A stretch of DNA of 64,000 nt from an uncultured Planctomycetota bacterium. Lineage in GTDB: Bacteria; Planctomycetota; Planctomycetia; Isosphaerales; Isosphaeraceae. Shown here one piece after another: positions 2,790 to 41,807 of this stretch. The notes under the pieces are model-generated. The model did no database searches. It was not told the origin of the DNA and saw only the letters and a program-made list of their open reading frames with translations. Made by a program: the position numbers and the translations under genes. The DNA lies in assembly GCA_963737655.1 (NCBI GenBank), contig CAVTTN010000002.1, positions 2,336,001-2,400,000 on the forward strand, given 5' to 3'. Within the stretch, counting starts at the first letter, position 1; each line of letters opens with the position of its first letter.

Positions 2790-3978
2790 CCCCGACTTCC
2801 TCAGCACGATCAGCCAGCACCGGATCGCCCCCCCGGCCGTCACGGGCGCGGTCTCGGCCGCGGACCTGATCGACGGCGCCTTCCTCAGCTACAACGCCGG
2901 GAGGCTCCGCGAGGTCTGCGGCGTGTTCACGAAGAAGATGCTCCGGCCCGATTGCACGGTCGGCCTGACGCTCTCCGGCGCCCTGACGCCCGCCGGGCTC
3001 GGCATGAGCTGCCTGATCCCCCTGATCCGCGCCGGCTTCGTCGATTGGATCGTCTCGACCGGCGCGAACCTCTATCACGACACCCATTACGCCCTCGATT
3101 TGCCCCTCCATCAGAGCCGGCCGAACCTGGATGACTTCGCCCTCCGCGAGAACAACGTCATCCGCATCTATGACATCGTGTTCGACTACTCGACCCTCCT
3201 GGATACCGACGCCTTCTATCGCGAGCTGATCCGCGACGACGTGTTCGCCCGGTCGATGGGCACGGCCGAGTTCCACCACCTCGTCGGCCGGTATCTCCAC
3301 GGCCGGGCCTCGGCGCTGGGCAAGGAATCCAACAGCCTCCTCGCCGTGGCGTATGAATGCGGAGTCCCCGTGTTCACGTCCAGCCCCGGGGACAGCTCGA
3401 TCGGGATGAACCTGGCGGCGAGCGCTCTGGGCGGCGGGGCGTTGCAAATCGACACGCTCCGCGACGTGAACGAGACGGCGGCGATCGTCTGGAAGGCGAA
3501 GCAGGGCGGGGGCACGTCGGGCGTGTTGATCCTCGGCGGCGGCAGCCCGAAGAACTTCATCCTGCAGACCGAGCCTCAAATCCAGGAAGTGCTCGGCCTG
3601 GCCGAATCGGGCCACGATTACTTTTTGCAGATCACCGATGCGAGGCCCGACACCGGCGGGCTCTCCGGGGCCACGGCCACCGAGGCGATGACCTGGGGCA
3701 AGGTCGATCCCGACAAGCTGCCCGACTCCGTGACCTGCTACACCGACTCGACCATCGCCCTGCCTTTGCTCACGGCCTATTCGCTCGCGAGGGTCGGGGC
3801 CCGGCCGCTGAAGCGGTTGTACGACCGTCGCGACGCCGATTACGAGGCGCTCTGCGCCGCCTACGTCGAGGCCCAATCCGCCGACGTGCGGACCGGGATG
3901 GCGTCCCGGCAGTCGCAGGGCCGGCACTCTCACCAGGCCCCTCCCAAACATCCCGACACGATGGACCGCGATCGCTAG
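2773..3978 (+). CDS. Deoxyhypusine synthase-like protein (probable homospermidine synthesis, SpeY-like)
   Basis: [33 protein letters not shown] with catalytic Lys. Confidence 0.9.
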
Positions 3979-36851: not shown

Positions 36852-37624
36852 TCAGTGGGACGGCGCCTCGACGGCCGGGGCGTCCTCGGACGAGACGTCC
36901 CCGGTCAGCAACGCCCGCTTGACCTCCTGGATCGCCTGGGTGACCTTGATGTCCCGGGGGCAGGCGCTGGTGCAGTTGAAGACGGTCCGGCACCGCCAGA
37001 CGCCCTCGGCGTCGTTGAGGATCTCCAGGCGCTCGGCCGCCGCCCGGTCCCTCGAATCGAAGATGAACCGATGGGCGTTGACGATCGCCGCCGGCCCCAC
37101 GTACTTCCGGTCCCCCCAGAACGGCGGGCACGCCGTGGTGCAGCAGGCGCACAGGATGCACTTGGTCGTGTCGTCGAACCGCGCCCGGTCGGCCGGCGAC
37201 TGGAGCCTCTCGGTCGTCGGCGCCGGGTCGTCGTTGACGAGGAACGGCATGACCGACTTGTAATGGTCGAAGAACGGCTTCATGTCGACGATCAAATCCT
37301 TGATCACCGGCAGGCCGAGGATCGGCTCCAGGGTCAGGGTGTCGGACTTCAGGCTCTTGACCAGGACCTTGCACGCCAGGGCGTTCACCCCGTTGATCCT
37401 CATGGCGTCGGAGCCGCAGACGCCGTGGCGCAGGAGCGCCGCAGCGCCAGCGACTCGTCATGATACCACTTGACCTTCTGGACGACGTCCAGGACGCGGT
37501 CCAGGGGGTCGGCCTCGACGTCATACTGCTCCCACCTCGGGGCGTCGTCCGCCTCGGGGTTGTAGCGCTTGACCTTGACGGTCAGCTTGCGGACGTGGGA
37601 TTCGGTGGTTGCGGCAGTGGCCAT
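36852..37624 (-). CDS. sdhB: Succinate dehydrogenase iron-sulfur subunit, frameshift near 37427
   Basis: RRSCA(H)GVCGSDAMRING, CILCACCTTAC, CRTVFNCTSACP. Confidence 0.93.
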
Positions 37625-37664
37625 GATAGGTCGCGGACCCCGAAAGGGCGATCGGGCGGGAAAA

Positions 37665-37937
37665 TCAACGCGTTCTCTCGGACCATTCGGCGGGCGTGTC
37701 GGTGTAGACGAACTCGACGCGGGACTGATCGTCGGGGCTCATCGCGTCGAGCAGGTGGCCCCAGACTCGGGCCTGCCTCTGCCCCTCGTATTGCCCCTCG
37801 AAGCTCCGGGAGATGACCCGGCCGAAGTACTTGTAACCGCCGAAGTCGGCGGGGTAGACCCGGATCTCGGGCGCGTCGAGGCCCAGGCCCCGGAGGCTCT
37901 CCCGGAATCGCGTCTCGAACGGGTCGTTCGATGTCAT
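37665..37937 (-). CDS. Small BolA-like protein (90 aa)
   Basis: RVISRSFEG...RQARVW...TPAEW pattern; ATGA overlap with the upstream HEPN gene. Confidence 0.65.
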   Translation of the reverse strand: MTSNDPFETRFRESLRGLGLDAPEIRVYPADFGGYKYFGRVISRSFEGQYEGQRQARVWGHLLDAMSPDDQSRVEFVYTDTPAEWSERTR

Positions 37938-38560
37938 CGGGCACCTCCTTCCGGGCCTGGCGGCCCGCCGGAGACTTGCGAGATCAGGGACTCGCCAAAT
38001 TGCTTCGCGGCCGAGAACCAGTCGAGAACGGTCTGCGAATCGATGGGTCGAAGGCCATCGTCGGTCGCGGGAGCCTCGTCACGGTCGGCGCGATGAGCGA
38101 TCAAGTGCCGTCTCTGGATCATCGACGCGAGCTGCCCCCTGAGTTCATGGTCCGCGATCTCGTCCATGCGAACCCCCATCTTATCCAGGAGCGTCGCGAC
38201 CTGGCCTACGTTATTGTACGTCGCTCCTTCAAGGGAGGCGGCGACCGACTTATTAATGAAGTCGGCTATGGAAAGATCGCTATGGTCGCGGAGGACGGCG
38301 AGCGTGAATTTGGATCGCTCGGGAGTGAACGGATCGATCCCGGCCAGGACGTCTCGCCTGGCGTTCGGCAGTTTCAGCCCCGCCAGGCTCCTCAGGAGGT
38401 GTTCGAGGGTCGAGTGGAGAAGTACTACCGATAGCCGGAGGAGATCAGCCGCTAACACCCGAGCGTGCTCGCCCGGCACGACCCCGACCGGCAGGCTCAG
38501 GAGGATGAGGTTCCGGACGCGGTCCAGGTTCGACCGAAAGTGGGTCGCGACAGGTTCCAT
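37934..38560 (-). CDS. HEPN domain protein (RiboL-PSP-HEPN-like)
   Basis: DLLRLSVVLLHSTLEHLLR helix and RRHLIAHRAD Rx4H motif. Confidence 0.75.
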   Translation of the reverse strand: MEPVATHFRSNLDRVRNLILLSLPVGVVPGEHARVLAADLLRLSVVLLHSTLEHLLRSLAGLKLPNARRDVLAGIDPFTPERSKFTLAVLRDHSDLSIADFINKSVAASLEGATYNNVGQVATLLDKMGVRMDEIADHELRGQLASMIQRRHLIAHRADRDEAPATDDGLRPIDSQTVLDWFSAAKQFGESLISQVSGGPPGPEGGAR

Positions 38561-40407
38561 CAATACTTCCGGATCTCCAGCGGATACTTCGTCGTGACCT
38601 CCCCGTTTTTCTCCACGGTGATCACGTCCACGTCTTTATACTCGACGCGGGTCCCGCCTTCGCCTTCCTTGTAGACCAGCGAGTGCTTGAAGAAGTCGCG
38701 GTCGTTGCGGTCGGGGAAGTCTTCTCGCGAGTGGGCGCCTCGGGACTCCTTCCTCGCCAGGGCCGAGGCCACCGTCGCCTCGGCGACGTCGAGCAGGCAG
38801 CCGAGCTCGAGGACTTCCAGGAGGCCCGTGTTGAACACGCTCCCCTTGTCCTGGACGCCCACCGTCTGGTACTGCCTCTTGAGCATGGCGATGTCGTCGC
38901 GGGCCCGGGTCAGGGTCTCCTCGGTCCGGTAGACCCCGCAGTCGTCCATCATGGTCCTCTGCATCTCGTCGCGGAGCTTGACCCAGGGGAAGCTCCGGGG
39001 GCGGGCGAGCAGCGCCTTGATCGCCGCCTCGGTCGGCGCCTCGGGCTTCGGCGGGATCGGCTCGAACGGCTTGTCGAGGGCGTATCTCGCCATGTCCCGG
39101 CCCGAGCGGCGGCCGTAGACGATCAGGTCCACCAGGCTGTTCGTCCCCAGCCGGTTCGCGCCGTGGACGCTCACGCAGGCCGATTCGCCGGCCGAGTACA
39201 GCCCGGGGACGATCGAATGGCTGGCGTCGCGGATCACCCGGCCGTGGACGTCCGTCGGGATGCCGCCCATCCCGTAGTGGGCCGTCGGCTGGATCGGCAT
39301 CGGCTCCTTGATCGGGTCCACGCCGAGGTACGTCCGGGCGAACTCGATGATGTCCGGCAGCCGTTTCTCGACCCAGAGGCTATCGACGGTCTGCCCGGTG
39401 GGGCTGGTGCCGTACTTGTTGATCGTCTCGGCGCGGATGTCCAGGTAGACGTAGTCCTTGCCGCCGATGCCCCGGCCGGCGCGGACTTCCTGGTAGATCG
39501 ACCGCGAGCAGACGTCCCGGGAGGCCAGGTCCTTGAGGTTCGGGGCGTAGCGCTCCATGAAGCGCTCGCCCTTGTCGTTGAACATGATCCCGCCGTCCCC
39601 CCGGCAGGCCTCGGAGAGCAAGATGCCCAGCCGATAGATGCCCGTGGGGTGGAACTGGTAGAACTCCAGGTCTTCCAGCGGCAATCCGTGGCGATAGGCG
39701 ATCGCCGGGCCGTCGCCCGTCAGGGCGTAGGCGTTGGAGCTGACCTTGAACATCCGGCCGAACCCGCCGGTGGCGATCAACACGCTCTTGGCGTGGAACA
39801 CGTGCAATTCGCCGGTGGCGATCTCGATCGCGACGACCCCCCGGCACTCCCCGTCGACCATGATCAGGTCGAGCATGTGGAATTCGTCGAAGAACGTGAC
39901 GCCCTGCTTGATGCACTGCTGATACAGCGTCTGCAAGATCATGTGGCCGGTGCGGTCGGCGGCGTGGCAGGCCCTCATCACCGGGATTCTGGGTCGGGCG
40001 TTGGGCGTGCCGGGCTTGGCCGAGGGGTCGTAATCGGGGTTGGGCTTGGTGTGGCCGCCGAACCGCCTCTGGGAGATCCGGCCGTCGGCCGTGCGGTCGA
40101 ACGGCAGGCCCATGTGCTCGAGGTCATAGATGCATTCGATGGCCTCTCGGCAGAGGATCTCCGCCGGGGTCTGATCGACGAGGAAGTCGCCGCCCTTGAT
40201 GGTGTCGTAGGCGTGGTTCTCCCACGAGTCGCTCTCCAGGTTGGACAGGGCGGCGGCGATCCCGCCCTGGGCGGCCCCGGTGTGCGACCTCGTCGGGTAC
40301 AGCTTGCTGACGACGGCGGTGCCGGCCTTCTTGCTGGCCTCCAGGGCCGCCATCAGCCCCGCCCCGCCCGAACCGACGATGATGCAATCGAAGCGATGAT
40401 AGTTCAT
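38560..40407 (-). CDS. sdhA: Succinate dehydrogenase flavoprotein subunit
   Basis: [16 protein letters not shown] (FAD-His), QFHPT, HYGMGG, HGANRLG, ESRGAH. Confidence 0.97.
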
Positions 40408-40469
40408 GTTGGGATTTTCACACACGCGGACGGCCCCGAGACGGGCGGACCCGGGGCGGACAGGTCACG

Positions 40470-41618
40470 TCACTTCCCGGGCGCCGGCAGGGGGTTCGCC
40501 CCGCGGACCGGCTGCGGCTTCGGCGGGGGGCCGGGGTTAGGCTCGGCCGGCGACTGGTTCTTCAACGGATGCTTGGCGATGTAGGCGTCGTCCTTCTGGA
40601 ACATGAAGATCGCGTACGACCCCACGCCCGTCAGGCCGATCATCCCGAGCCAGATCAGCGTCGAGGCGATCACCCGCCGGGACGGCCGGGCGATGTATTC
40701 GTAGAGGACCTGGCGGAGCCCGTTGAACCCGTGCCCCAGCGCCAGGACGATCAGCGAGAAGTCCCAGATCCGCCACAGGGCCCCGGTCCCGGGCGCCGCC
40801 CAGCGGCTGGCCACGAAGGCGTAGTTGATCGTCTCCACATTGTTCAAGATATGCATGATGAACAGGTGGCCGACCGCCAGGAAGATCAGGAGCAAGCCCG
40901 AGATCCGCATCAGGTACCAGGCGCGGAGCTCGAAGCCGGACGACGGCCGGACCCGCGTCCCGGCCGGCGGCACCAGCCCGATCACGCTGATCCAGACGAA
41001 CCCGACGCCGGCCATCGCCAGCATCAGGGCGACGGTCCTCGGCGCCCTCAAAGGCGATCCGGCGGGCCGATCGGCCTGCGCCACCGGGGCGGGCGGGGTC
41101 GCGGGCGCCTCGGCGGCGGCGTTCGGCCGGATGTCGGTCTGGATGTCCTGCATGTGACCGGGGGGCTGCGTCAACGGGTACAGCACGAACAGGGTCGTCG
41201 GCACCATGATCAGGACGAAGACCCACTGGACCCCTCGGAGGATCTCCTTGCGGTAGAGCGTCCCCCGGTTCCAGAAGTCGTACAAGATCACCCCGGTGCC
41301 GTTGACCGCGTGGAAGACCACCGAGGCGATCAACCCGAGCTCGGCCACGCGGAACCCCCAGCGGAGGGCGACGTAATATTTGCCGTCGAACCAGATCCCG
41401 CCGTAGAGCGCCACGGTGTGGTCGTACCACTCGGGCACGACGACGACGAAGAACGTGTCCAGGACGTGGAAGAACAGGAAGAAGAGGATGCCCAGGCCGG
41501 TCAGTCGATGGATCAACCACGACCACTGGCCGATGCCTCCCCCGTAGCGGAGGCCGTCGGCCAGGCGGGCGAAGAGGCCGGGGCGGTAGGCCCTCGGCGA
41601 GCGGGGCGAAGGTGCCAT
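40470..41618 (-). CDS. sdhCD: Fused SdhC-SdhD cytochrome b membrane anchor
   Basis: HRLTG...HVLDT...HAVNG (C-like), linker, MRISG...HLFI...HGFNGLR (D-like) in one ORF. Confidence 0.85.
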   Translation of the reverse strand: MAPSPRSPRAYRPGLFARLADGLRYGGGIGQWSWLIHRLTGLGILFFLFFHVLDTFFVVVVPEWYDHTVALYGGIWFDGKYYVALRWGFRVAELGLIASVVFHAVNGTGVILYDFWNRGTLYRKEILRGVQWVFVLIMVPTTLFVLYPLTQPPGHMQDIQTDIRPNAAAEAPATPPAPVAQADRPAGSPLRAPRTVALMLAMAGVGFVWISVIGLVPPAGTRVRPSSGFELRAWYLMRISGLLLIFLAVGHLFIMHILNNVETINYAFVASRWAAPGTGALWRIWDFSLIVLALGHGFNGLRQVLYEYIARPSRRVIASTLIWLGMIGLTGVGSYAIFMFQKDDAYIAKHPLKNQSPAEPNPGPPPKPQPVRGANPLPAPGK

Positions 41619-41807
41619 GAAAGTCGGCGTCTCGTGGGCGGGTTCGGGGCGGGGCGGGACGTCGGCCGCATCCGCCCGACGGCGAATCGGCCCGTCCTCT
41701 CGGTCTGGAGGCCCCCGCGACACGTTTCTTGTAGAGCCGACGGGCGGGGGGGTCAAGGGGGCAGCGGCCCCGGTTCGCGAGATCGCCGGCCCGAGCGGCT
41801 CCCGCTT

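Follow-up and report, generated by a model that had tools for sequence, protein, structure and literature searches.

Two adjacent genes between sdhA and sdhB of an uncultured planctomycete (family Isosphaeraceae; assembly GCA_963737655.1, 7.63 Mb in 3 contigs, 68.7% GC, 87.7% complete) were analyzed. Both lie on the minus strand of a stretch of 64,000 nucleotides (nt), hereafter the window (contig CAVTTN010000002.1, positions 2,336,001 to 2,400,000; G000:C2:2336001-2400000 in our numbering). Judged by its sequence, the larger protein is a HEPN protein of the RiboL-PSP type and a predicted RNase, and the smaller is homologous to BolA but has a remodelled surface. Together the genes make up a real, conserved and co-inherited module. 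The pair is probably a type II toxin-antitoxin system, with the HEPN RNase as putative toxin and the BolA-fold protein as putative antitoxin, and HEPN genes paired with a stand-alone BolA-like gene are likely a new toxin-antitoxin family, not a regulator of respiration. A toxin-antitoxin-like module had been proposed in a preliminary description of the locus; the conserved pairing and a predicted 2:2 complex, both described below, strengthen that proposal. The features of the module, with lengths in amino acids (aa), are as follows.

37934..38560, minus strand: HEPN gene (208 aa), RiboL-PSP-HEPN-like (Pfam PF18735), encoding the predicted RNase toxin
38093..38110, minus strand: Rx4H motif, R151-H156, inside an RRHxIxHRxD signature (from residue conservation)
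37943..37950, minus strand: strong Shine-Dalgarno site of the small gene, within the 3' end of the HEPN gene (8-nt consensus match)
37665..37937, minus strand: BolA-like gene (90 aa), encoding the predicted antitoxin (from profile, model fold and HHalign)
37749..37790, minus strand: residues 50-63 of the small protein (RQxxVW helix), its signature and the centre of the predicted HEPN-dimer interface

The gene pair and its two proteins

Pairing was scored in two sets of loci, which overlap in part. Among 20 loci of the host's order that carry a homologue of the small gene, the locus of the window among them, 15 had a HEPN homologue directly upstream. A BolA-like gene was found directly downstream in 41 of 80 HEPN loci from GTDB genomes (16 Planctomycetota, 19 Myxococcota/delta, 3 Cyanobacteria, 2 Pseudomonadota, the last from bins, and 1 unclassified), so that the two genes do co-occur elsewhere, a point on which the preliminary description had made its proposal depend. 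As a control, this HEPN was present at 0 of 30 canonical BolA loci. The gap between the paired genes was at most 30 nt in 30 of 32 loci, a spacing that points to co-transcription. The other 39 HEPN loci had different neighbours, including the type I restriction gene hsdR and DUF1508.

A quick HEPN tree was built from 71 sequences (70 of the 80 loci plus the window; 10 partial loci were dropped). The 37 paired and 34 unpaired HEPNs were separated on it by one change (0 of 500 shuffles as low), with no unpaired HEPN inside the paired branch, and the partner thus appears to belong to one branch of the HEPN family. The gene trees of 36 pairs agreed with each other (Spearman 0.54, reached in 0 of 2000 permutations), and of the 9 supported splits in the partner tree 8 were shared. 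In both gene trees, three pairs from Cyanobacteria grouped with myxobacterial pairs, which suggests that the pair has been transferred across phyla as a unit. The two domains also occur in one natural HEPN-BolA-like fusion protein (P0086, 296 aa); longer fusion forms, with 3 matches (tandem or run-on forms) among 8000 scored candidates, are weak evidence either way. Both open reading frames (ORFs) of the window are real genes, since homologues exist and nonsynonymous divergence (dN) was well below synonymous divergence (dS) in 8 of 8 comparisons of closely related pairs, for both genes (dN/dS about 0.06-0.25 where dS was finite).

The window HEPN matched Pfam PF18735 with 24.8 bits (E 2.4e-5; curated cut-off 28.4), and the same annotation was carried by 17 of 21 rows of the HEPN homologue search. 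It scored 0.97 to RiboL-PSP-HEPN clusters of the ESM Atlas. No sequence match was found for it in the PDB, and PADLOC matched 0 of the 21 members. Residues E53, R150, R151, H152, H156 and D159 were 100% conserved in the 37 paired and 34 unpaired sequences. The Rx4H motif (R151-x4-H156) was present in 71 of 71, which bears out the earlier identification of a HEPN protein with an intact motif. A tyrosine after the motif, the acceptor of Rx4HxY proteins, was present in 0 of 71; it is the AMPylation site of HepT in the available text of PMC7641770.

Two observations were made on the neighbours of unpaired HEPN genes. A common conserved gene for 130-140 aa lies downstream of unpaired-branch planctomycete HEPNs at three loci (L071:3518-3940, L078:3617-4006 and L094:3605-4003). 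This gene, which had no Pfam match at L078, is possibly another antitoxin family. A DUF1508 (YegP-like) gene directly follows two other unpaired HEPNs (L081:3608-3931, Pfam-confirmed, and L093:2919-3251).

The small protein matched only itself in a single-sequence search and had no match in Pfam, NCBIfam or PADLOC; a metagenome scan with one family member as query returned nothing. Homologues were present in 21 of 121 genomes of the host's order; of 300 other genomes sampled from the phylum, only 1 had a member of the subfamily according to a narrow profile. A profile of 18 homologues retrieved 893 clusters (50% identity, E<=0.001) among 1.84 billion representatives, a count that may include some canonical BolA, with 192 clusters at E<=1e-10. 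Against PDB sequences the best matches of the family profile were BolA proteins (E 2.2e-4). By HHalign the family scored 97.5% against 23 canonical BolA and 0.2% against 27 minimal nucleotidyltransferases (MNTs), the MNT sets giving 0.2-0.6% overall (the 'TPEE-type' set being of 4 sequences). Pfam BolA (PF01722) was matched at E<=0.1 by 38 of 131 family members and NCBIfam BolA by 2 of 50; no nucleotidyltransferase family was found among the 25 listed of 32 Pfam families matched by the 131 members. No canonical BolA was found in the host genome, at its 87.7% completeness, by a PF01722 search.

The fold was modelled from an alignment with AlphaFold2 (predicted local distance difference test, pLDDT, 94), replacing a poor single-sequence fold (pLDDT 61). 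The predicted fold is alpha-beta-beta-helices-beta, KH-like, as in BolA. VIA aligned the model with BolA 3o2e at Z 9.2 (root-mean-square deviation 2.8 over 80 residues) and with BolA structures in general at Z 7.3-9.2; MNT structures scored lower (2rff Z 6.7, 1ylq Z 6.2), among many unrelated alpha/beta domains. The best Foldseek E value was 2.5e-4, and the top 18 among the listed matches were all BolA-like or a mitoribosomal chain. The BolA fold named in the preliminary description was thus recovered by HHalign, Foldseek and VIA, the last two on a predicted model. A large-subunit chain of the Toxoplasma mitochondrial ribosome (9i05_Xx, 9g6k_UC) matched the model as well as BolA did (Z 9.2 and 8.7), a hint that a BolA-like fold may sit on RNA. 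Three tandem BolA-like genes follow one HEPN gene in a myxobacterial bin (L099:3546-4601), and two BolA-like domains per protein were seen in P0035, P0069, P0076, P0108, P0116, P0126, P0127 and P0140.

The surface residues of the family differ from those of canonical BolA. The RQxx[VILA]W motif was found in 122 of 131 family members and in 0 of 23 canonical BolA. Position 75, on strand 3, is conserved as an acidic residue (E or D in about 90% of the sequences). The Fe-S ligands of BolA are an invariant C-terminal His and a His or Cys in the [H/C] loop, according to the available text of PMC7538681. All 23 canonical BolA have the C-terminal His motif, as against 1 of 131 family members, and neither His nor Cys occurs in the [H/C] loop of the window protein. 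Because these ligands are missing, the small protein is, by its residues, apparently not an Fe-S carrier.

The MNT motif GSx10DxD was present in 0 of 131 members. A degenerate MNT was ruled out by sequence, from this count and the HHalign scores, as the preliminary description had also held, though the two folds are loosely alike. A related reading is that the small protein is an inactive nucleotidyltransferase-like sensor, comparable with the 'inactive nucleotidyltransferase' (iNTase) of HINPO systems, which would bind a nucleotide or nucleic-acid fragment and switch the HEPN on in infection. The MNT matches to the model, the acidic residue at position 75 and a HINPO-like fusion found by a widened profile (L295, see below) speak for it, as does the nucleotide sensing proposed by Li, Burroughs and Aravind in the available text of bioRxiv 10.64898/2026.10.19.760177. 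We consider it distinctly unlikely: BolA structures and BolA profiles both scored higher, the MNT motif is missing, no ParA Walker A motif lay within 3 kb in any of the 41 paired loci, and residues 74-78 lie in the predicted HEPN interface. A sensing role and an antitoxin role of the small protein are mutually compatible.

The predicted complex and the antitoxin assignment

A 2:2 complex of HEPN and partner was predicted with an ipSAE of 0.77 (median of three runs), versus 0.00 for the best of 3 controls. Among solved complexes 116 of 157 reach the ipSAE mark, as do 2 of 215 mismatched pairs, a calibration that is only rough for a prediction from own alignments in a 2:2 job. The runs agreed in at least 71% of contacts, with a partner pLDDT of at least 85. 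In the model, the contacts with the lowest error run from partner residues Q55 and W59 to HEPN residues 142-150, which are the helix leading into R151-H156, and partner residues 74-78 are also placed within the interface. The geometry would be consistent with steric blocking of the HEPN active site.

Positions of the predicted pocket differ between paired and unpaired HEPNs. Position 146 is small (A/G/S/P) in 33 of 37 paired versus 6 of 34 unpaired sequences, position 141 is F/L/Y in 1 of 37 versus 31 of 34, and position 153 is hydrophobic in 31 of 37 versus 5 of 34. This seems to be a consistent contrast and not many independent events, because the paired and unpaired groups are each one branch.

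In type II systems an excess of antitoxin and loss of the toxin first are expected. Of 32 loci, 24 had the longer Shine-Dalgarno match at the partner gene and 2 at the HEPN gene; the matches in the window were 8 nt (small gene), 4 nt (HEPN gene) and 3 nt (sdhB). At L013 the partner is kept and only the two ends of the HEPN gene remain, and at L006 and L016 the partner is present without an upstream HEPN.

These observations also bear on the reading in which the BolA-fold protein is the activating or aiming subunit of a two-subunit RNase, a KH-like partner that would hold the active dimer or guide it to RNA (e.g. tRNA or rRNA), with control exerted elsewhere. The predicted interface flanks R151 and H156 without naming them, the helix-turn-helix of BolA resembles KH domains (as described in the available text of PMC7538681), and unpaired HEPN relatives are tolerated without a partner, all of which would suit it. 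Yet the partner persists at the three loci where the HEPN is deleted, the paired branch contains no unpaired HEPN, the ribosome-binding site of the partner is the stronger one in 24 of 32 loci, and the predicted protein contact already occupies the conserved helix of the partner. An activating role is therefore rather unlikely.

In the type II assignment, the HEPN protein would be a dimeric RNase acting through its Rx4H motifs. The BolA-fold protein would bind this dimer by its RQxxVW helix, next to the active site, and keep it inactive without chemical modification. The module would be transcribed with the host operon around it, no promoter or regulator of its own having been found, and the partner would be made in excess through its stronger ribosome-binding site. 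If the partner were then lost or displaced (by stress, halted transcription or phage infection), the RNase would be freed. The RNase activity, toxicity, inhibition and trigger of the pair are what we infer from these data.

Several points weigh against a toxin-antitoxin system. Autorepression from an own promoter is the usual, if not universal, arrangement in type II systems; a DNA-binding autoregulator of the module is not evident, and most paired loci adjoin housekeeping genes and not defence islands. No gene-sized insert is present at the sdhA-sdhB junction in 45 of 59 genomes surveyed, and since most relatives thus lack the module there, strong addiction is doubtful. The 39 HEPN relatives without a partner keep Rx4H intact, and therefore the HEPN family need not be toxic alone. 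No match was found in IMG/VR, in PLSDB plasmids (one query) or in PADLOC. The branch separating paired from unpaired HEPNs had only 75% support in the Shimodaira-Hasegawa-like approximate likelihood ratio test, on a quick tree that omits 10 of the 80 loci. The residue contrasts and the mirror tree reflect one evolutionary event more than many, as kin share features. R151 and H156 are not among the named residues of the modelled interface, binding could also activate or aim the RNase, and the complex score carries the rough calibration given above.

The sdhA-sdhB junction and other insertion sites

The minus-strand order is fused sdhC-sdhD, sdhA, HEPN ORF, small ORF and sdhB. This order, the codon overlaps and the spacer before sdhB all agree with the preliminary description. 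The features around the module are as follows.

40470..41756, minus strand: fused sdhC-sdhD for the membrane anchor, the gene that opens the host operon (two Pfam Sdh_cyt stretches, E 5.7e-14)
38560..40425, minus strand: sdhA, its stop codon overlapping the HEPN start (TGATG)
37625..37664, minus strand: spacer of 40 nt between the small ORF and sdhB
36852..37624, minus strand: sdhB, split by a 1-nt frameshift at 37427-37428 (two Fer2_3 halves)

The sdhA stop and the HEPN start overlap by 1 nt (TGATG at 38560), and the HEPN stop and the small-ORF start by 4 nt (ATGA at 37937). The fused sdhC-sdhD is a single ORF of 428 aa (40470-41756). At the frameshift site, sdhB is intact in a relative (L002), and the frameshift is likely a long-read assembly error. 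The gene downstream of sdhB (36629-35731) also appears split across frames, and this split is likewise a likely indel error of the assembly. One sigma-70-like promoter match was found upstream of the operon (42266-42239); from sdhA to sdhB the minus strand gave neither a promoter nor a terminator match, in a scan with the sigma-70 consensus only. Terminal repeats or a target-site duplication around the module were not found. The GC content of the HEPN gene is 63.0%, versus 66.5-68.9% for the sdh genes, and its GC content at third codon positions (GC3) is 0.75 versus 0.93-0.97, so that the gene is more AT-rich as first described, but the difference in GC is only modest. The composition of the small gene is close to that of the host (GC 66.7%, GC3 0.89).

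The junction was surveyed in the 59 of 121 genomes of the order in which the queries used find this type of sdhA and sdhB, and inserts were counted by hand. Gene-sized inserts were present in 14: 9 were this module, 4 were Uma2 (PF05685) and 1 was a RES-domain cassette (Uma2 or RES at L124, L132, L150 and L136 in G119, G117, G056 and G059, and at L145 in G018). Two Uma2 genes stand in tandem in G059, and the RES-domain gene is accompanied by a small upstream ORF. The 9 modules span several genera; one is frameshifted (G045) and one lies across a contig break. Among the empty junctions are that of G081, of the host's own genus, and that of G027, where a 3' piece of the BolA-like gene survives. 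Mapping the module onto an sdhA tree of 34 of these genomes took 7 changes, a number as low as which was seen in 53 of 500 shuffles. On the module tree, 6 of 7 sdh-site modules lie on one side of a branch (support 89.8/73), and the seventh groups weakly (54.7/44) with the site at a molybdopterin oxidoreductase gene. The sdh site is best explained by an early insertion that was later lost or replaced many times, possibly with a second arrival.

Elsewhere the pair follows genes for molybdopterin oxidoreductase, fusA, hflX, moaC or rtcA, or precedes gpsA. The second common planctomycete site is after the molybdopterin oxidoreductase gene and before a glutaredoxin-like (DUF836) gene. At L007, L011, L013, L014, L015 and L018 the module is followed by DUF836 and DUF2064 genes; this DUF836 protein is not a monothiol CGFS glutaredoxin. 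The sdhA-sdhB site is thus one of several landing places, and it is also used by other small conflict cassettes.

The preliminary description had further suggested a link to respiratory or Fe-S status, in which the module would tie RNase activity to complex II and the BolA-like protein would sense or carry Fe-S clusters, possibly for SdhB. Two observations fit it: 9 of 59 genomes, from several genera, keep the module at the sdhA-sdhB junction, and the second common site lies beside oxidoreductase and glutaredoxin-like genes. This suggestion was not borne out and is extremely improbable: the Fe-S histidines of the family are gone, the [H/C] loop of the window protein has no ligand, the insert is lacking in most relatives including one of the same genus, five junctions hold unrelated Uma2 or RES cassettes instead, and the pair occurs at many sites, after fusA, hflX, moaC, rtcA and others.

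Frequent loss and decay (the G027 remnant and the G045 frameshift), the patchy occurrence on the sdhA tree and the housekeeping neighbours would be expected if the pair were a non-toxic, weakly selected passenger or RNA-turnover module that is merely carried along with operon transcripts, with no role in conflict. We regard this as very unlikely, since both genes are under purifying selection with an invariant catalytic motif, the pair seems to have moved across phyla as a unit, and RES and Uma2 cassettes use the same junction. Divergence is also fast by comparison with sdh genes (identity 37-43% for the HEPN and 30-50% for the partner, versus 85-92% for sdhB). A toxin-antitoxin system stays the preferred reading.

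Comparison with known systems

A second BolA-like subfamily was found in 47 of the 121 genomes of the order. By HHalign it scored 97.4% to the first subfamily, 94.7% to BolA and 2.1% to MNT. A PF05168 HEPN gene lay directly upstream in 23 of 30 loci. This second, PF05168-like HEPN family gave an HHalign score of 0.06% and no alignment with the window family, and its consensus has no plain Rx4H. The host genome holds such a second pair (C2:6438637-6439388; L296:1635-2350, minus strand), which we take to be preceded by a galactokinase-like ORF and followed by a selenium-binding-protein-like one. Both module types were seen within 3 kb on one myxobacterial contig (L064:324-1062 and 3001-3888).

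In the HINPO systems of Li, Burroughs and Aravind, a HEPN gene of the PA-HEPN1 family is followed by the iNTase domain fused to ParA and then by ORC/CDC6, and the iNTase domain is proposed as a nucleotide sensor; the word BolA was not found in the available text of the preprint, whose supplements may bear on novelty (bioRxiv 10.64898/2026.10.19.760177). A widened profile applied to 201 cyanobacterial genomes retrieved mostly short, weak-scoring proteins, taken for canonical BolA, and one 869-aa fusion. The fusion (L295:1131-4225, G558:C108) is BolA-like/ParA/STAND-like and stands with a HEPN gene in the HINPO layout, from which we infer that the locus is a HINPO system. The bit scores of its N-terminal domain were 20-23 for the BolA-like profiles, 21 for canonical BolA and below 5 for MNT, and its HEPN matched the second, PF05168-like family (50.6 bits), not the family of the window.

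As a tentative generalization, one that may well fail, the BolA fold, familiar from Fe-S trafficking and stress regulation, could serve HEPN RNases in general as an antitoxin scaffold. One large clade of BolA-like proteins (the 893 clusters) would have swapped its Fe-S histidines for a HEPN-binding helix, would neutralize at least two distantly related HEPN families and would spread promoterless into housekeeping operons. It would also be the minimal core of HINPO, onto which ParA and STAND were fused, the HINPO iNTase being a BolA-type antitoxin, and BolA and MNT would possibly be two outcomes of one ancient HEPN-partner fold.

If true, these readings would bring a new fold to the antitoxins and a new family to the toxin-antitoxin systems, one that is common among Planctomycetes and Myxococcota and escapes PADLOC and the Pfam and NCBIfam cut-offs. 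Hundreds of proteins annotated as 'hypothetical' or 'stress-induced morphogen' would gain a testable role with named interface residues, and the enigmatic HINPO iNTase domain a simpler reading. They would also bear on how BolA proteins arose, a family that in eukaryotes consists of Fe-S maturation factors. The survey further shows the sdhA-sdhB junction to be a recurrent landing site of small conflict cassettes.

The larger protein of the window belongs with the RiboL-PSP-HEPN domain family (PF18735). The contexts tabulated for that family in the available text of Anantharaman et al. (2013; PMC3710099) are fusion to endoRNase L-PSP and operons with ParB, and BolA has 0 mentions in the main text of that paper. 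BolA, PF01722 and RiboL gave 0 matches in the supplements of PMC13069673 and PMC10440598. The HEPN-BolA pair was not found among the best-ranked matches of full-text literature searches, and the supplements of the HINPO preprint could list stand-alone versions.

The small protein resembles canonical BolA/IbaG/YrbA proteins (PF01722) in sequence and in structure (HHalign 97.5%, Z up to 9.2). It differs in that its family lacks the invariant His and the [H/C]-loop ligand, and carries RQxxVW and EF(V)xTxxP in place of the canonical motifs (R/Q)H..VY and IHAL. In the part of the loci that was checked, the family adjoins HEPN genes and not monothiol glutaredoxin partners.

RnlB of E. coli is an antitoxin that binds the RnlA HEPN dimer and blocks its active site, as described in the available text of PMC8266594. 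This type II, anti-phage system resembles the window pair in its HEPN toxin with Rx4H and its small protein antitoxin, and in the blocking of a dimer without chemical modification, which in the window pair is predicted only. RnlA is multidomain, whereas the window HEPN is a lone RiboL-PSP-type domain. The partner is a BolA homologue; RnlB was absent among the 50 VIA and 43 Foldseek matches listed, with no direct comparison of the two.

HepT-MntA (HEPN-MNT, type VII; available text of PMC7641770) is likewise a two-gene HEPN module with a small alpha/beta partner, and the BolA and MNT folds are loosely alike (Z 6.2-6.7). Unlike it, the window family has no GSx10DxD (0 of 131), no Rx4HxY tyrosine (0 of 71) and a partner without profile similarity to MNT. 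Because all three are missing, AMPylation is not expected in the window pair.

HINPO, as represented by L295, shares with the window module a HEPN gene directly upstream of a domain that scores as BolA-like and not as MNT. The window module lacks ParA and STAND, its partner is a free-standing protein of 90 aa, and its HEPN is of another family than that of L295. Since no ParA motif was found within 3 kb in any of the 41 paired loci, the window module is not a member of HINPO; in architecture, HINPO is its nearest described relative.

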